Origin: Spirochaetes bacterium ADurb.Bin133
GTDB lineage: Bacteria; Spirochaetota; GWE2-31-10; MWDO01
Assembly (NCBI GenBank): GCA_002070605.1
Contig: MWDO01000002.1
Span: 40,723 to 104,722, forward strand
Reading direction: 5' to 3'
DNA: 64,000 bases
A model generated the notes under the pieces. The model saw nothing but the letters and a program-made list of their open reading frames with translations, made no database searches and had not been told where the DNA came from. Below are positions 3,166 to 62,596 of the stretch, in pieces (the first letter of the stretch is position 1; the number at the start of each line of letters is the position of its first letter). The position numbers and the translations under genes are program-made.

Positions 3166-3266
3166 CTATTAATTCCTGATATAGTTTCTTATCGGTTGCG
3201 CAAATTATAAGATTTAATTAAGTAGGAATATTTTTTAATAAATATCCCTTTTTGTAATAAAAAAGC

Positions 3267-3363
3267 TCTCCGTCGGTTTTTTTGGGCGTGGAAATTCGAC
3301 GCATATGAAACAAATATCTTTAAATAGTAATTTTTTTTATTTCCCAAAAAACCGACGGATTAC
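3267..3363. mobile_element. MITE-like repeat copy 1 (short variant, core degenerate, orientation B)
   Basis: CCGTCGGTTTTTTTGGG ... CCCAAAAAACCGACGG inverted arms around core GACGCATATGAAACAAATAT; flanked by near-identical ATAAAAAAGC / ATAAAAAAAGC direct repeats. Confidence 0.6.
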
Positions 3364-3398
3364 ATAAAAAAAGCGTCAAAAAATGACGCTTTTTTTAT
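3363..3398. terminator. rho-independent terminator downstream of rny (bidirectional form)
   Basis: AGCGTCA-aaaaa-TGACGCT hairpin with A-run 5' and T-run 3'. Confidence 0.65.
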
Positions 3399-4932: not shown

Positions 4933-5018
4933 CCTATCCTCCAGAAATATATTAATATTTCCATGTTAATTCAATTCTAAATTATTGTCAAGTAAATTTG
5001 TAAATATTTGAGACGCCC

Positions 5019-5078
5019 GCGGTTTCTTGAAGGAAAAAATTGACACATATGGAACAAATATTTTTAATTAGTAAATTA
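5019..5078 (+). promoter_or_regulatory. partial repeat copy 2 carrying candidate promoter TTGACA(5040-5045)-N17-TTTAAT(5063-5068) for ORF 5168
   Basis: core TTGACACATATGGAACAAATATTTTTAAT; the same arrangement is duplicated upstream of paralog at 60984-61499. Confidence 0.5.
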
Positions 5079-5167
5079 TTTATTATTTATTAAAAATTAT
5101 CCGAGTTTTTGTAAAGAGTTTTCTACTTTTAGTTGTTATATATATAAAAGAAAAAGGAGAAAATTTT

Positions 5168-5683
5168 ATGAAAAACAAAAAACATTTATTTCACTTTATA
5201 GTATCTGAATCTATGAATACCAATGTTATAGATTTTTTGCTAAAGGAGTTCAAAATTAATACGTTTAGCAAGTTATTTGAAACTATGTTTCGTCTCGTTA
5301 ACAAAAAAATCCCAAAAATGAAGAGAATAGTCGGAAATCATCGCTCCGAATACGCCGTTATAGATAGCTCCGACGATAAAAGAGTGGATAAATATCTTAG
5401 AATCAGCGAAGCGGACTATCTTCAAATAAAAAGATGGCATTCTTTGTATAACGAATTCGGTATGGCTTCGACGGTTCGCGATATTATCCTGTTTTTCTAT
5501 AACGGCGTTGTAAAATACGGGCTAGAAGGATTTCTTGAGCTTGTTGGCAAGAAATTGAAGGTTGATAAATTGAAAAACGACTTTTTGGATAAAATGACAC
5601 AACTGTTAAATATAACCGCTCGGAAACAGCTATTACACACGCTCGTAATCGAAAATTATCCCAAATACGTTTACTGTACTTAA
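5168..5683 (+). CDS. hypothetical protein, paralog family (171 aa), copy A
   Basis: complete ORF with AAGGAG SD; about 90% aa identity to ORF 60984-61499 on the other strand; no recognisable motif. Confidence 0.7.
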   Translation: MKNKKHLFHFIVSESMNTNVIDFLLKEFKINTFSKLFETMFRLVNKKIPKMKRIVGNHRSEYAVIDSSDDKRVDKYLRISEADYLQIKRWHSLYNEFGMASTVRDIILFFYNGVVKYGLEGFLELVGKKLKVDKLKNDFLDKMTQLLNITARKQLLHTLVIENYPKYVYCT

Positions 5684-6181
5684 AACTATTTGTCATTTTA
5701 TAAAAAACCGGCGAGGCGCCAAATTTATTCATAAAAACATTGACTTTAAATCTATTTTGCAATACAAGTATGCTGGATAGATGTTATGAAATTTTATAAA
5801 TTATTTTTATTTCTGATAATTCTTTTATTCGCTTTCCAACCCGCGTTTGTTAAAGAGAGCGCTTTTATGGATTTTTTCAAGATAAATATCGAGAATGAAT
5901 TAAGAGAGTCTCCTTTAAATAACTTTAATATTTTGGCAAATATAAGAATAACTAAATTATTAAAAATGTTTTTCTTATTTTTGTCTTCGTCTATAAAACA
6001 TATTATTACGGCTATTTCCTTTATTATTGTTTCAAAAATATTTTTTAATAAGATCTTAATACTCTATTCATTATTTTTGAGATCTCCCCCTATTATTTAA
6101 TATAAAAATATTTCATTATTTTCTTTTCGCTAACTTTAATCGATTTTTTTATTATTTGTTTTAAAAAAGGGGGAATTTATA

Positions 6182-7369: not shown

Positions 7370-7434
7370 TATCGCTATTTACGTAAAATTATTTTATACG
7401 AGCAAAATATTATAAAAAATATTAATAGTCAAGG

Positions 7435-7544
7435 GTAATCCGTCAGTTTTTTGAGGAATAAAAAATATTTGTTCCATATGTGTCATTTTTTTTGAGATAG
7501 AGTCGCGTTACCTATTTTCTTACCCCAAAAAACTGACGGGACAC
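7435..7544. mobile_element. MITE-like repeat copy 3 (long variant, orientation A)
   Basis: GTAATCCGTCAGTTTTTTGAGG ... CCCCAAAAAACTGACGGGACAC; core AAATATTTGTTCCATATGTGTCA; flanked by 8-bp direct repeat AGTCAAGG (7427-7434 and 7545-7552). Confidence 0.7.
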
Positions 7545-7587
7545 AGTCAAGGTTTTATAAAAAATAATGTTAAAATGTTGTATCAAA

Positions 7588-52048: not shown

Positions 52049-53152
52049 TTGTTTGTTAAATCTATAAGCGCGACAAATTTTCGAAATTTTAGAAATTTAG
52101 AATTTTGTTTTAAAGAACAAGAGAGACATATAATAATAAAGTCCCCAAACGGAACGGGTAAAACTAACTTTCTCGAATTATTATACTATTTTACATATTT
52201 AAAATCCTTTAGAGCCGTTTCCGACGGCGAGTTAATAAATAAAGGGGAAAACTACTTTTCTATTTTAATTAATTACGATAACGACGAAGATAACGAAATA
52301 TCTGTTAAATATTTAAATAAATCTAAAGAGGTCGTTTACAACAATAAAAAGATAAAAAGATACTCTGAAATATTTGGAAAATATTGTTCGGTAGTTTTTT
52401 CAAGCGACGATATGTTAATTATTAAAGGAAATCCAAACTACAAGAGAAAATTTTTTGATATGTTTTTTTCAATAATCGATATCGAGTATTTTTATAGTAT
52501 TAAAAATTATAATTGCGTATTAAAACAAAAAAACGCTCTTTTAAAAAATAAGTCGTTTGATAAAAAATTGTTGGAAATTTATAACTATCAGTTGGCGCAA
52601 TATATAAATATTATTCAGCAAAAAAGAGACGAGTTTATTAAGATAACCAGTAAAGATTTTAACGATAAATATTTAGAAATAGGCGATTATAATTACAGCG
52701 CCAAAATTATCTATTATCCTTCAATTAAAATTAAAGAGTTTACTCAAGAAAATATTTTTAACTTTTTAATGGAATGTTGCAAAAAAGAAGTTGAACTTGG
52801 CTTTTCTTTTTACGGCGTCCATAAAGATAACTATCAATTTTTATTAAATAATCTGAATTTTAATAGTTACGCTTCTTTTGGTCAAACTAGATTGGCGTCG
52901 TTAATTATGAAAACCATACAAGCGGATAATTATAAAAAATATAACAATATTTCGCCGATTTTATTACTAGACGACGTGATTTTAGAGTTGGATAACTATA
53001 GGAAGGTCAAATTTGTTTCAAAAATATTTGATTATAAACAGTTTTTTATTACAATTAGCGACGATACTCTTTTAAAAATTTTTGAAAAAAGTTCGTATTT
53101 ATCATTTTTGGAGATTATAGATGGAAAAATACAAAAAAGTAACTTTAATTAA
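52049..53152 (+). CDS. recF: DNA replication and repair protein RecF
   Basis: Walker A SPNGTGKTNFLE, ABC signature region, LLLDDV Walker B; 367 aa. Confidence 0.88.
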   Translation: MFVKSISATNFRNFRNLEFCFKEQERHIIIKSPNGTGKTNFLELLYYFTYLKSFRAVSDGELINKGENYFSILINYDNDEDNEISVKYLNKSKEVVYNNKKIKRYSEIFGKYCSVVFSSDDMLIIKGNPNYKRKFFDMFFSIIDIEYFYSIKNYNCVLKQKNALLKNKSFDKKLLEIYNYQLAQYINIIQQKRDEFIKITSKDFNDKYLEIGDYNYSAKIIYYPSIKIKEFTQENIFNFLMECCKKEVELGFSFYGVHKDNYQFLLNNLNFNSYASFGQTRLASLIMKTIQADNYKKYNNISPILLLDDVILELDNYRKVKFVSKIFDYKQFFITISDDTLLKIFEKSSYLSFLEIIDGKIQKSNFN

Positions 53153-53432
53153 AGACGTTATACCGTACTGCTTTTATAAAGGGGAATATAAAAACGAATT
53201 TTATCTTGATTTAATAAAAAAAAATTGGAAAGTTATTGTGGGAGAAAGACTCGAAAATTTCATAACGCCGGATAAAATAATAAATAAAAAATTATATATA
53301 TCGTGCGCTCATACGGGTTTTATTCAATCTCTTAATTTTCAGAAGGAAAATATTATTAAAAATATTTCAAAAAATATTGAAAAAGAAATAATTCTTGATA
53401 TTAAATATTTTATAGGAAAATCAAAGCGCTAA
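53121..53432 (+). CDS. DUF721-family protein (recF-associated)
   Basis: 103 aa; conserved position after recF with 32-nt overlap. Confidence 0.55.
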   Translation: MEKYKKVTLIKDVIPYCFYKGEYKNEFYLDLIKKNWKVIVGERLENFITPDKIINKKLYISCAHTGFIQSLNFQKENIIKNISKNIEKEIILDIKYFIGKSKR

Positions 53433-53448
53433 ATATAATAGCGCTGCT

Positions 53449-53550
53449 CCGTCGGTTTTTTGGGGAATAAAAAATATTTGTTCCATATGCGTCGAATTTT
53501 TTTGAAACAGGCTCGCGTTGTCTATTTCTTTACCCCAAAAAACTGACGAG
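53449..53550. mobile_element. MITE-like repeat copy 4 (long variant, orientation A)
   Basis: CCGTCGGTTTTTTGGGG ... CCCCAAAAAACTGACGAG; core AAATATTTGTTCCATATGCGTCG. Confidence 0.65.
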
Positions 53551-53656
53551 CTACTTAAAATAAATTATTTAATCTTGACATAAATTGTATAAAAATGGTA
53601 TAATTCTTTTCTTTAATGGAAATAACAATTAAGTTTATAAAATATAGGAGATAAAT

Positions 53657-57440: not shown

Positions 57441-58770
57441 TAAAAAATATATATGCGTTGAATGCGCTTACGCCACCATGTCTTGGATTGGAAAATGTCC
57501 TCAATGTAACTCTTGGAATACGTTAATTGAGGAGAAACAACAAGAAAAAGAGTTTATATCTCGACAAGAGATAAAACTGAATTTATTAAAAGATATTAAA
57601 ATTGATCCTCATGAAATTATAAAAATTTCTGACAATGATTTGAATATGTTCTTTGGAGACGGCATTGTTTGCGGTTCAGTTATTTTGCTTTCGGGTGAGC
57701 CCGGAATAGGGAAATCTACCTTTCTTTTTTATTTAGCGGATAATATTGAAAGTAGTAGAAAAATATACTATTTTTCCGGCGAGGAAACTTTACAACAATT
57801 AAAAATTAGAGCGGAGCGACTTGAACTAAAAAAGGATAAATTTTTTTTATCAAATAATAATGATTTAACCGCAATTCTAGAGTTGTGTAAAAAAGAGAGA
57901 CCGGATATAATTTTTTTTGACTCCATTCAAACTTTGAAACATGAAAATATTGAAAACGACGGTTCTGTTAGTAGTTTATCTCAGATGAGGATTTGCGCTA
58001 ACGATATAGTCGAATTTTCAAAATCTTTCAATATTCCCGTTATTATAGTCGGTCATATTAATAAATCGGGCGAGATAGCCGGACCAAAAATTATCGAACA
58101 TTTGGTCGACGTCGTTTTGTATTTTGAATTTGACGCCAGAAATAACTATAGAATATTGAGATCGGTTAAAAACAGATTTGGAACTATCGATAATATTTTG
58201 TTTTTTGATATGTTGGCAAAAGGTTTAAAAGTTGTTGATAATAATCTTGAAACGCTGAAAGGGAAAAATATTTATAATAGCGTTGTTGGAAAGTGTAAAA
58301 CGATCGCCGTAGAGGGGATTCGTACTTTTTTGATAGAAATTGAAGCGTTGGTCGTACCTACGGTATTTGTTAATCCGAGAAGGTATTCTGAAGGGATAGA
58401 CGTAAGCAGAGTTAATAAAATTATTGGGGTAATCAATAAATATTTGAATGAAAATCTTAATAATTACGATATTTATGTTAATATAACTCAAGGAATAAGA
58501 ATTAAAGACGTGGGAATCGATTTGGCAATAGCTATGGCAATATATTCTTCAAAAATTAATGCGGCTATTAAAGGAGATACCTGTTTTATCGGAGAAATTT
58601 CTTTGACCGGAGAGATACTTAGCGTGAAAAAAATGTTCAATAGAGTAAAAGAGGCTGAGAAATATAATATTAATAAAACCTATTTATCAGAAAATATCGA
58701 TATTGAAAATAAGGAAAATTGTATTATAATTGAAAATGTTAGAGATATGAAAAATATTTTTAATAAATAA
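57430..58770 (+). CDS. radA: DNA repair protein RadA/Sms
   Basis: C4 zinc finger CVECAYATMSWIGKCPQCNSWNT, Walker A GEPGIGKST, KNRFG motif, C-terminal Lon-protease-like domain; start set to Met just before the zinc finger. Confidence 0.9.
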   Translation: MKNSKKYICVECAYATMSWIGKCPQCNSWNTLIEEKQQEKEFISRQEIKLNLLKDIKIDPHEIIKISDNDLNMFFGDGIVCGSVILLSGEPGIGKSTFLFYLADNIESSRKIYYFSGEETLQQLKIRAERLELKKDKFFLSNNNDLTAILELCKKERPDIIFFDSIQTLKHENIENDGSVSSLSQMRICANDIVEFSKSFNIPVIIVGHINKSGEIAGPKIIEHLVDVVLYFEFDARNNYRILRSVKNRFGTIDNILFFDMLAKGLKVVDNNLETLKGKNIYNSVVGKCKTIAVEGIRTFLIEIEALVVPTVFVNPRRYSEGIDVSRVNKIIGVINKYLNENLNNYDIYVNITQGIRIKDVGIDLAIAMAIYSSKINAAIKGDTCFIGEISLTGEILSVKKMFNRVKEAEKYNINKTYLSENIDIENKENCIIIENVRDMKNIFNK

Positions 58771-58773
58771 AGT

Positions 58774-58870
58774 CCCCTGTCAGTTTTTTTGGATGGGGAA
58801 ATGACACATATGGAACAAATATTTTTAATTATTAAATTATTTTTTATTCCCCAAAAAACCGGCGGGATAC
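58774..58870. mobile_element. MITE-like repeat copy 5 (short variant, orientation B) with candidate outward promoter ATGACA-N17-TTTAAT (58801-58829)
   Basis: CCCCTGTCAGTTTTTTTGGATGGGG ... CCCCAAAAAACCGGCGGG; core TGACACATATGGAACAAATATTTTTAAT; ORF 58881 begins 11 nt after the element. Confidence 0.65.
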
Positions 58871-58880
58871 GCGAATAAAA

Positions 58881-59882
58881 ATGAAAAAAATATTGTCTTT
58901 CTTAATTTTGATTTATTTCGTTTCATTTATCTGTAGCGAAGAAAATCCGAAAGCGTATATAGGCGTCTCTTCGCCTTTTATGAAAACGGACAACGCCACT
59001 GCGAAATTTTTTAATAAACAATTTATTTTTGAATTTTTATCGAATGAGACCGAAGTTAAATATAATTTTGTAATTTTAAACGATTATGAGACTACAAATA
59101 ACGACGAGTTTTATCGGTTGATCAAAAAAGAGGCTTTCGAAAAGCAAATTGATTATATACTATACGGCGAAACATATACAATTAATAATAGCGTAATACT
59201 TAAATGTTCCTTAATAAATCCATACGACGATTCTATTTTATTTATGAAAAATTTTAGGTCAAAGAACGATTATACTATAAACGATTTTCTTACGACAGTT
59301 TCAATTGAATTATTTAAAATATTAAATAATTCTACGTTGACGATTATTAAACAAAAGAAAGCGATCGTCAAAGACGCAAAAGAAGACGACGACTTATCCT
59401 TAGAAATAAAAGCGAATACAAAACATGAAATAATGGTTTTTAACGGCTTTTTAAAAACTACTCCAAGGGTTATCTCGTTTGTACATAGTTTTTATGGATA
59501 TTATTTTTCCCCGATTAATTTTTTTTCATTGGGCGGAGGTTTGTTCTGGGGATTTGGAATAAACGACGATAGATTATTATTTAATTATAGTATCGATAGC
59601 TCTAAAAGTTTCTTTATCGGGACTAGTACCGGAATTAGTTTTCATATTTCAGGATATGCGGTGGAGCCCTTTGTCGGATTAAAAATTGAATTGTGTTATA
59701 CTATAGATAAATATCTGGATTTATATATTCCGATAGAGACCGGTATAAAAATTCACATAAGGAAAATGAATTTTTTTAGTATATACAACTCTTTTCAGTT
59801 TACCGCTTATAATTTGTTTAACTATAAATGGGAAAACGTATATATCATAGGAATAAATATTGGATATGTTAAAAAAATATAA
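58881..59882 (+). CDS. secreted hypothetical protein (333 aa)
   Basis: signal peptide MKKILSFLILIYFVSFICS; no homology recognised. Confidence 0.5.
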   Translation: MKKILSFLILIYFVSFICSEENPKAYIGVSSPFMKTDNATAKFFNKQFIFEFLSNETEVKYNFVILNDYETTNNDEFYRLIKKEAFEKQIDYILYGETYTINNSVILKCSLINPYDDSILFMKNFRSKNDYTINDFLTTVSIELFKILNNSTLTIIKQKKAIVKDAKEDDDLSLEIKANTKHEIMVFNGFLKTTPRVISFVHSFYGYYFSPINFFSLGGGLFWGFGINDDRLLFNYSIDSSKSFFIGTSTGISFHISGYAVEPFVGLKIELCYTIDKYLDLYIPIETGIKIHIRKMNFFSIYNSFQFTAYNLFNYKWENVYIIGINIGYVKKI

Positions 59883-60951: not shown

Positions 60952-60983
60952 AGCCGTATCCTGTCGATTTCTTGCGAAAAAAA

Positions 60984-61499
60984 TTACGCGCAGTAAACGT
61001 ATCTGGGATAATTTTCGATTACGAGGGCGTATAACAGCTGTTTTCGAGCGGTTATATTCAACAGTTGTGTCATTTTACCCAAAAAGTCGTTTTTCAACTT
61101 ATCAATCCTTAATTTCTTGCCAACAAGCTCAAGAAATCCTTCCAACCCGTGTTTTGTAACGCCGTTATAAAAAAACAGTATAATATCTCGAACCGTCGAA
61201 GCCATACCGAATTCGTTATAAAAATAATGCCATCTTTTAAGTTGTATATAGTCCGCTTCGCTGATCCTAAGGTATTTATCCAACCTTTTATCGTCGGAGC
61301 TATCTATAACGGAGTATTCGGAGCGATGATTTCCTATTATTCTTTTCATTTTTGGCATTTTTTTGTTAATAAGGCGAAACATCGTTTCAAACAGTTTACT
61401 GAACGTATTAATTTTGAACTCTTTTAGTAAGAAATCTATGACGTTACTATTCATAGATTCAGACACTATAAAGTGAAATAAATGTTTTTTGTTTTTCAT
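60984..61499 (-). CDS. hypothetical protein, paralog family (171 aa), copy B
   Basis: about 90% aa identity to ORF 5168-5683 including identical MKNKKHLFHFIVSESMN N-terminus; same SD and leader. Confidence 0.7.
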   Translation of the reverse strand: MKNKKHLFHFIVSESMNSNVIDFLLKEFKINTFSKLFETMFRLINKKMPKMKRIIGNHRSEYSVIDSSDDKRLDKYLRISEADYIQLKRWHYFYNEFGMASTVRDIILFFYNGVTKHGLEGFLELVGKKLRIDKLKNDFLGKMTQLLNITARKQLLYALVIENYPRYVYCA

Positions 61500-61559
61500 A
61501 AAATTTTCTCCTTTTTCTTTTATATATATAACAACTAAAAGTAGAAAATTCTTTACAAA

Positions 61560-61650
61560 AACTCGGATAATTTTTTAGAAAATAACAAATATTTTGCTAG
61601 TTAAAACTATTTGTTCCATATGTGTCAATTTCTTTCCTCAAGAAACCTAC
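61560..61650 (-). promoter_or_regulatory. partial repeat copy 6 with candidate promoter for ORF 60984-61499 (TTGACA at 61623-61628, minus strand)
   Basis: reverse complement reads GAAATTGACACATATGGAACAAATAGTTTTAAC then a 100-nt leader almost identical to 5069-5167. Confidence 0.5.
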
Positions 61651-61754
61651 GGAACGCAAATCAAAAACAGAAATTAACTTTAATTTGAAATTAAGATATG
61701 CATTAAATATCCATATATAATAAGCGTATTTATAACGAGGGTAATTATCGTTTG

Positions 61755-62394: not shown

Positions 62395-62438
62395 CTTTAT
62401 AGTTTAAATGTTTCACGTGAAACATTTAAACTATAAAG
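62395..62438. repeat. perfect 44-bp palindrome centred on CACGTG (arms extend to about 29 bp if the MITE insertion is removed)
   Basis: CTTTATAGTTTAAATGTTTCAC|GTGAAACATTTAAACTATAAAG read directly. Confidence 0.8.
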
Positions 62439-62547
62439 TGTCCCGTCAGTTTTTTGGGGAATAGAAAATATCTGTTTCATATGTGTCAATTTTTTTGAGA
62501 CAGACTCGCGTTATCCATTTCTTTACCCCAAAAAACTGACGGATTAC
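62439..62547. mobile_element. MITE-like repeat copy 7 (long variant) flanked by 10-bp direct repeat AACTATAAAG
   Basis: TGTCCCGTCAGTTTTTTGGGG ... CCCCAAAAAACTGACGGATTAC; direct repeats at 62429-62438 and 62548-62557. Confidence 0.75.
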
Positions 62548-62567: not shown

Positions 62568-62596
62568 TTGACATTTGGGTAAAAAGAAATTATTAT
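62568..62596 (+). promoter_or_regulatory. sigma70-like promoter for serS TTGACA-N17-TATTAT
   Basis: read directly, 33 nt upstream of the serS ATG. Confidence 0.5.

Follow-up and report, generated by a model that had tools for sequence, protein, structure and literature searches.

Miniature transposable elements of the inverted-repeat type (MITEs) bearing sigma-70-like promoters are established for the Correia elements (CREE) and have been reported for MITEAba12, BrickBuilt and QMITE1 (PMC10969869). Another group, the mobile insertion cassettes (MICs)/transporter insertion sequences (IS), consists of a passenger gene bounded by terminal inverted repeats (TIRs), with no transposase (PMC3129680). 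In this work, we have analysed a stretch of 64,000 nucleotides from Spirochaetes bacterium ADurb.Bin133 (contig MWDO01000002.1, hereafter the window), in which a first-pass annotation had read the conserved core of a repeat at 58,774-58,880 as an outward-facing sigma-70 promoter. The window holds seven copies of this repeat, numbered c1-c7 in order, and c5 is the flagged one. We have found that the flagged stretch is a non-autonomous transposable element, i.e., a MITE. All members of its family seen to date are from uncultured Spirochaetota of digesters and sludge. The chances seem about even that this is a new family of MITEs and cassettes whose core is a probable binding box of a ribbon-helix-helix (RHH) protein.

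The family resembles the Correia-type MITEs and the MICs in outline, shares no sequence similarity with them, and appears to be a member of none of these groups. Like Correia, MITEAba12, BrickBuilt and QMITE1, its members are small, bounded by TIRs, multi-copy and intergenic, contain sigma-70-like sequences, can adjoin the 5' side of genes, and give transcripts of the hairpin type (PMC10969869). However, Correia promoters have been shown experimentally, whereas the Spirochaetota family has a non-canonical -10 hexamer in every copy and no orientation bias. In addition, what is conserved inside the present elements is a repeated box with linkage to an RHH gene. The long members of the family, c2 and c6 in the window, are comparable to MICs in being TIR-bounded units of 0.7-0.9 kb with one non-transposase gene, in occurring in multiple copies, and in having target-site duplications (TSDs) in some cases. 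They differ from MICs in that no cognate IS or transposase is found in the sampled loci, and in that every cassette has the same predicted DNA-binding gene, which is selected in tens of copies. The box upstream of this passenger gene is, unlike in MICs, what the MITE derivatives keep. A left module, variable internal repeats and a right module are also known from pneumococcal BOX and from BrickBuilt of P. gingivalis (with an internal minisatellite) (PMC4596501). Unlike these, the present family has modules headed by the same 12-15-nt box with differing tails, clear TSDs, and a gene-carrying parent.

The flagged stretch belongs to a MITE family

The 23-nt core TTGACACATATGGAACAAATATT has 6 matches with no more than 3 mismatches in the window, against 0.01 expected, and a seventh, more diverged copy lies at 3294-3316. 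The core of c5 occupies 58801-58823 on the + strand. The features of this copy and of its insertion site are as follows:

58772..58870, + strand: c5, a short MITE of subfamily A and deletion derivative of the long cassette, with TIR-like ends GTCCCCTGTCAGTTTTTTTGG...CCCCAAAAAACCGGCGGGATAC
58798..58823, + strand: box plus core of c5, AAATGACACATATG and then GAACAAATATT
58824..58829, + strand: -10-like hexamer TTTAAT of c5, 17 nt past ATGACA, with A2 missing, not called by the promoter scan
58763..58771: left copy of a decayed 9-bp TSD, ATAAATAAA, which now provides the radA stop codon (58768-58770)
58871..58879: right copy of the decayed TSD, GCGAATAAA, immediately 5' of the ATG at 58881

The element proper ends at 58870, and bases 58871-58880 are host sequence.

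Metagenome contigs were scanned with a degenerate core, which yielded more than 117 stretches (~1 Mb), all of them from anaerobic-digester or activated-sludge samples. A scan of species-representative genomes gave one genuine relative (L005) and five chance matches, so that the family statistics all come from the metagenome contigs.

All the short copies have inverted repeats, CCGTCAGTTTTTTGGGG...CCCCAAAAAACTGACGG, at both ends. The TIR is ~22 bp long (GTAWYCCGTCAGTTTTTTGGGG / CCCCAAAAAACTGACGGRWTAC), and its termini are GTAWYCCGTCAG.../...CTGACGGRWTAC. Of the 88 unique elements, 48 are bordered, at a constant offset, by exact direct copies of 7 bp or more (most often 8-9 bp), while this proportion is only 2% (38/1760) for randomly re-paired flanks. 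The TSD length of the family is 8-10 bp, whereas the Correia TSD is TA, and exact TSDs are seen in the window for c1, c3 and c7. The distribution of element lengths has its peak at 72-125 bp and trails off to 300 bp, and a second class is found at 730-890 bp. The assignment to a MITE family is made because TIRs, TSDs and many copies are observed, together with an empty site in relatives (see below). On this point the first-pass annotation, which had suggested a mobile module, agrees with our results.

Three other identities were tried and rejected. REP/BIME elements with a RAYT are out, since TSDs and TIRs are present and the fold predicted for the associated protein is RHH, not HUH. A CRISPR-like array is out as well, since there are TSDs and TIRs and the "spacers" are few and recur. 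A larger IS was sought between TIR pairs, and in the four pairs with a spacing of 3.5-5.5 kb the genes in between are housekeeping ones (Ddl, NadE, DinB, PepA, HflX and others), with no transposase.

Insertion of c5 at the radA junction

Copy c5 sits in the operon yidC-jag-...-radA-ORF333-ORF361. In three relatives (L128, L130 and L131), whose orthologues of ORF 58881 are 83-85% identical, the orthologous radA/ORF333 junction has no element, and the two genes overlap by 4 nt (ATGA); neither an element nor a box occurs within 9 kb in them. The uninterrupted junction of the relatives reads AACGAGTTAAAATG, and the two TSD copies flanking c5 match each other at 6/9 positions. Copy c5 has inserted into an operon junction with translational coupling. 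The near-identical strains L075 and L116 (99% identical) have the same insertions in both, and empty sites are seen only in more distant relatives.

Since the insertion split a translationally coupled gene pair, a polar or disruptive consequence for ORF 58881, if there is any, is just as likely as an activating one. Moreover, as c5 lies inside an operon whose genes overlapped before the insertion, a promoter of its own is not needed there. We have also observed that the insertion altered the C-terminus of radA, which ends in ...IFNELK* in the relatives and in ...IFNK* in the window, and that the ATGA start/stop overlap with the next gene was lost. The left TIR arm of c5 has decayed, and so has its TIR hairpin, with an RNA fold z-score of -1.0 compared with -4 to -7 in other copies. 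This decay possibly reflects selection against a strong hairpin inside an operon.

The conserved unit is an iterated box

Across the family, the conserved unit is a box of 12-15 nt, AAAwTGACRCATATG, for which 600 unique boxes give the logo AAAwTGACrCATATGnrnC. In this logo the information is found at -5 to +9 and at +13, and none at the -10 position. The 600 unique GACRCATATG boxes make up 84% of all CATATG sites in the ~1 Mb of loci. The box is partly dyad-symmetric, and in 61 cases it forms a perfect palindrome, GACRCATATGYGTC. Each element has one to four or more boxes, arranged in tandem and in the same orientation, and each box is followed by one of a few recurrent tails. All the boxes point to one end of the element, they are absent beside the left TIR in many copies, and the internal tandem boxes have no -10 signal. 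Avoidance of an NdeI-like restriction site was considered and rejected, for CATATG is not depleted outside the boxes (120 observed vs 140 expected).

The box is also found near homologues of the 171-aa gene carried by the long cassettes. In L133 (75% identity), L136 (43%) and L138 (~39%), AAATGACACATATG precedes the start codon by 115-145 nt and is the only CATATG at the locus, while the surrounding sequence has diverged. What is retained across these three loci is TGACACATATG, namely the hexamer (ATGACA) and six bases of the supposed spacer. Such a pattern would be expected where a protein recognises the site, not for a -35. In solitary homologues of this type the box is present though the family TIRs do not bound the gene. 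Judging from these homologues, the pairing of box and gene appears to be older than the mobile family.

Some further features of the boxes were noticed. At L085 (3192) and L070 (5249), an intact 171-aa gene with the conserved leader has neither a box nor a recognisable left repeat upstream, which means that the gene can persist without the box. The distances between successive boxes in the loci L007-L123 cluster at 26-27, 36-39, 45-48 and 73-77 nt, so that the steps are close to one turn of the helix. The boxes may be phased in this way for a protein that binds cooperatively, or the spacing may only mirror the small number of module types. Perfectly palindromic boxes, TTGACACATATGTGTCAA, are found at L046 (around 6515, minus strand), L017, L040 and other loci, where a second recurrent module, GC-rich and with its own palindrome (CGCGTCGATAACGCGCGACAATTGTCGC), occurs as well.

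Long cassettes and the 171-aa protein

Two of the window copies are long cassettes:

5011..5719, + strand: c2, long cassette, consisting of the left TIR, the box/core at 5034-5062, the conserved leader, the gene at 5168-5683 for the 171-aa protein (predicted tandem RHH), and the right TIR
5128..5146, + strand: proximal leader motif AGTTGTTATATATATAAAA (TGnTATATA, extended -10-like), ~25-40 nt 5' of the ATG at 5168
60956..61657, - strand: c6, long cassette, whose 171-aa gene, a paralogue, occupies 60984-61499

These two are 90% identical to each other over 611 nt and match more than 35 metagenomic copies at 87-91% identity. In such cassettes, which are 0.7-0.9 kb long, the left TIR is followed by one to four boxes, ~100 nt of leader and the 171-aa open reading frame (ORF), and a right TIR comes directly after the stop codon. 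The TIR-bounded unit with a passenger gene and no transposase is seen in more than 20 metagenomic copies besides c2 and c6. The short elements derive from these cassettes by internal deletion and have the same repeats. For example, c5 is 88% identical to the 5' part of c2 over 59 nt. It corresponds first to the beginning of the leader (TTTAATTAGTAAATTATTT) and next to the segment after the stop codon (TTTATTCCCCAAAAAAC...), which makes it an internal-deletion derivative across an AAATTATTT microhomology.

The 171-aa ORF is intact in all the 24 unique full-length copies, and the median pairwise ratio of non-synonymous to synonymous substitution rates (dN/dS) is 0.13 at a dS of 0.45. The gene is under purifying selection. 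The protein has ~100 near-identical relatives, all in uncultured Spirochaetota and with at least 9 paralogues in one metagenome-assembled genome, and its family is narrow, comprising 10 clusters among 1.84 billion representatives. It matches no Pfam family and no PDB sequence. AlphaFold2 on the more diverse alignment (pLDDT 69) gives two beta-alpha-alpha units, E5-13/H14-28/H33-45 and E72-80/H81-93/H99-129, from which the protein is predicted to be a TraY-like single-chain tandem RHH DNA binder. Given this predicted fold, the cargo of the cassettes is predicted to be a sequence-specific DNA binder and not a transposase. The possibility that the 171-aa protein is itself the transposase was rejected, since there is no Pfam or PDB sequence match and the predicted fold is RHH rather than DDE, HUH or recombinase. 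A plasmid or phage origin was rejected too, with no match for the cassette in PLSDB and none for the protein in phage records.

TraY is a monomer that contains a whole RHH dimer in one chain, and on DNA three of them bind in a train at adjacent sites (bioRxiv 10.1101/2024.12.19.629322). In comparison with TraY, VirC2 and AvtR, and with the array-binding RHH regulators omega, ParG and MetJ, the 171-aa protein shows no detectable sequence similarity. It differs from the TraY type also by an additional C-terminal helical region of ~60 aa and by its context, for there is no relaxase, oriT or plasmid, and the 171-aa genes are chromosomal and lie inside transposon-like cassettes.

The leader upstream of the gene is conserved as well. 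Over the 24 long copies, ~85 nt of leader (5084-5167 in the window) are at least 95% conserved, compared with a synonymous divergence of 0.45 in the ORF. The leader is therefore strongly selected in its own right, whether as promoter, operator or structure of the 5' untranslated region (5'-UTR). The TGtTATATA motif within it is likewise at least 95% conserved in these copies despite the ORF dS of 0.45, and the TGnTATATA form persists in all the distant homologues (36-75% identity).

Other copies in the window

The remaining four copies are short MITEs:

3265..3363, + strand: c1, short MITE with the box TTCGACGCATATG and an exact 8-bp TSD, ATAAAAAA, at 3257-3264 and 3364-3371
7435..7544, - strand: c3, short MITE of subfamily B with an additional GGTAACGCGACTCTATCTC module and an exact 8-bp TSD, AGTCAAGG, at 7427-7434 and 7545-7552
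53444..53554, - strand: c4, short MITE of subfamily B with the box TTCGACGCATATG, aimed at the 3' end of ORF 53121-53432
62438..62547, - strand: c7, short MITE of subfamily B with an exact 9-10-bp TSD, (A)ACTATAAAG (AACTATAAAG)

Copy c1 (RNA fold z -5.1) is aimed at the 3' end of the RNase Y gene. Directly past it, at 3364-3398, a hairpin with a 15-bp stem and flanking A and T runs (ATAAAAAAAGCGTCAAAAAATGACGCTTTTTTTAT) overlaps its right TSD, and this hairpin looks like a bidirectional terminator of the RNase Y gene. The RNA fold z of c3 is -4.3 to -5.0. Copy c7 (RNA fold z -7.2) is located in the divergent AMMECR1/SerRS spacer, where a perfect 44-bp palindrome (ctttatagtttaaatgtttcac|gtgaaacatttaaactataaag) occupies 62395-62438, between c7 and the AMMECR1 promoter. 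The right arm of this palindrome includes the TSD of c7. The palindrome might serve the divergent region as an operator or as a signal for both directions.

We have also observed promoters in the host DNA close to the insertions. A 12/12 consensus promoter, TTGACA-18-TATAAT with an upstream TG, lies at 53575-53604 just outside c4, and TTGACA-17-TATTAT lies at 62568-62596 just outside c7; for many metagenomic insertions, too, there is a host TTGACA some tens of bases away. These positions suggest that the elements prefer to insert in AT-rich promoter-proximal DNA.

A model for the box and its limits

In the reading that we prefer, the core would be the last of one to several iterated AAAwTGACRCATATG boxes, which would serve as recognition sites of the 171-aa protein. 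The box array would be an operator, or an iteron-like array, ancestrally linked to the 171-aa gene, and the gene itself would probably be transcribed mainly from the proximal conserved TGnTATATA promoter. The gene would then have been lost from the cassette, while the box array remained and was scattered around the genome. The terminal repeats would be mobilised by a transposase supplied in trans, presumably of the DDE type because of the 8-10-bp staggered-cut signature. The first-pass annotation had mentioned a regulator binding site as an alternative for the CATATG-containing core, and it is this alternative that is favoured over the mobile promoter by the box logo, by the linkage of box and gene, and by the predicted RHH protein as a candidate regulator.

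On the other hand, several observations weigh against this reading. The link between box and protein is drawn from their co-occurrence and from the predicted fold, the model of which is of moderate confidence, with a shallower run on near-identical sequences being uninformative (pLDDT 44). The box is absent in two homologues, with 46% and 36% identity (L124 and L127), and where present it lies ~90-100 nt upstream of the putative proximal promoter, which is unusual for a simple autorepressor. In the ~1 Mb of related loci there is no cognate transposase, the only TIR-bounded coding unit being the RHH-gene cassette, and an exact TSD is found in only 2 of the ~14 long copies (L049, CTCTCTATTA; L017, GGAGTAAA). 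Finally, 55% of the cores have a perfect TTGACA, which is preceded by a UP-element-like A-tract, and promoters with a perfect -35 can function with T at position 2 of the -10 (-11), e.g., TTAACT in the trp promoter of E. coli. As such natural promoters exist, some promoter activity of the core is conceivable, and weak outward transcription may start from the TTGACA-17-TTTAAT copies, though the sequence is not conserved for that.

Promoter-like signals of the core

The first-pass annotation had described the core as TTGACA, a 17-nt spacer and TTTAAT. The spacing and the -35-like and T-rich hexamers do exist, since exactly 17 nt past the core hexamer every window copy has TTTAAT, TTTTAT, TTCTAT, TTTAAA or TTTAAC. 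However, the hexamer of the flagged copy is ATGACA, and TTGACA is found only in c2, c6 and c7 (3/7); c3 has ATGACA, just as annotated, and c1 and c4 have TCGACG. Among the 154 unique family cores, the first hexamer is TTGACA in 84, ATGACA in 32 and TCGACG in 19, and in none of them (0/154) is there a -10 with A2 and T6 at 16-18 nt, the hexamers found being TTTAAT, TTTTAT, TTCTAT and similar. A scan with the sigma-70 consensus called none of the seven window cores and found canonical promoters in the same regions. As canonical TTGACA/TATAAT sites are present there, the organism appears to use ordinary signals.

The orientation of the elements relative to the flanking ORFs is random, with 15 co-oriented, 11 anti-oriented, 11 divergent and 11 convergent cases among 48 elements. 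The five short copies in the window also follow the chance expectation (c3 and c5 co-oriented, c1 and c4 anti-oriented, c7 in a divergent spacer). The first-pass annotation had five copies pointing at the nearest gene start, and the directions are right for copies 2, 3, 5, 6 and 7, yet two of the targets, ORFs 5168 and 61499, are the cargo gene of the element itself. It had also held that independent promoters farther downstream would speak against its proposal, and in the sequence such sites are seen for c2, c3, c6 and c7: the conserved TGtTATATA leader for the cargo gene of c2 and c6, TTGACT-17-TATTTT at 7432-7404 between c3 and ORF 7369, and TGgTATAAT at 62375-62367, downstream of c7, for AMMECR1. 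Promoter-like sites are present in the radA 3' end, too (58703-58730). Overall, a complete outward sigma-70 promoter aimed at adjacent genes is not what these data indicate, for no canonical -10 and no orientation bias are found, and the conserved unit is TGACRCATATG, not a -35/-10 pair.

Alternative explanations

The alternative that survives best, which we consider possible and clearly less probable than the preferred reading, combines promoter and operator. Here the terminal box would be the -35/UP part of a weak distal promoter overlapped by an RHH operator, and the MITEs would spread a repressible outward promoter. The occurrence of TTGACA in 84/154 cores at a fixed 17 nt from TTnnAT hexamers, the A-rich tract ahead of the hexamer, the conserved linkage of box and gene, and the predicted RHH fold are all in line with it, and RHH operators commonly overlap -35 regions, as for CopG, Arc and omega. 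However, the -10 lacks A2 in all the 154 cores, the internal boxes are without a -10 signal, the distant homologues have ATGACA with unrelated sequence at the -10 position, and the elements show no orientation bias relative to host genes.

A constitutive outward sigma-70 promoter delivered to adjacent genes, as first annotated, is improbable in our judgement. In its favour are the geometry of a -35-like hexamer, 17 nt and a T-rich hexamer, the position of c5, which leaves no space for another promoter between the element and the ATG at 58881, and the precedents of Correia, MITEAba12, BrickBuilt and QMITE1 (PMC10969869). Against these stand the uncalled, non-canonical and randomly oriented cores described above. 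In the window, c1 and c4 are aimed at the 3' ends of genes, the targets of c2 and c6 are their own cargo with a proximal promoter-like motif, c3 and c7 are each followed downstream by a separate promoter-like site, and the operon that holds c5 had overlapping genes before insertion, with promoter-like sites in the radA 3' end.

Equally improbable, to our mind, is that the boxes are subterminal binding sites for the mobilising transposase, as in Tn7, Mu or Ac/Ds, with the RHH gene as mere cargo. Several boxes are found per element, all inside the TIRs, the signatures of transposition are clear, and an RHH fold would have no catalytic function, so that another enzyme would be required. Nevertheless, the boxes are asymmetric and one-ended, being absent beside the left TIR in many copies, the same box is found upstream of solitary homologues outside the family TIRs, and no transposase has been identified in the ~1 Mb of related loci.

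The least probable alternative, which we hardly expect to be true, is an RNA-level element in which co-transcribed TIRs pair as a long hairpin for processing, stability or termination and the core is loop filler: c1, c3, c4 and c7 do form strong TIR hairpins (z -4.3 to -7.2), 11/48 elements lie between convergent genes, and Correia and ERIC transcripts are substrates of RNase III/E (PMC10969869), but the box and not the stem is most conserved, also outside a hairpin context, c5 barely folds, no U-tract follows the stem, and an Rfam gathering scan of the whole window returned nothing.

Significance for the Spirochaetota family

Since MITE-borne promoter-like sequences are well known, a promoter claim for such an element is an ordinary one, and in this instance it fails to convince. 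The family itself is less ordinary: it is a prolific MITE lineage, its parents carry the gene of a predicted single-chain RHH protein instead of a transposase, and the box upstream of that gene is its most conserved feature. If the box is the site of the protein, this would raise the question of how such cassettes are mobilised, and the family would be a bacterial transposable element that disperses binding sites for a factor encoded by itself. The copies adjoin core genes, including the radA operon, RNase Y, SerRS and AMMECR1.

A more far-reaching idea, to which we attach a small probability, is that of a self-spreading system of a regulator and its binding sites. In such a system, tens of intact, selected TraY-like tandem-RHH genes per genome would be accompanied by hundreds of boxes seeded beside housekeeping genes by the gene-less MITEs. 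The protein would then be a genome-wide DNA-binding factor, either nucleoid-like or regulon-building, or a targeting or recruiting subunit that allows transposition without an own transposase.

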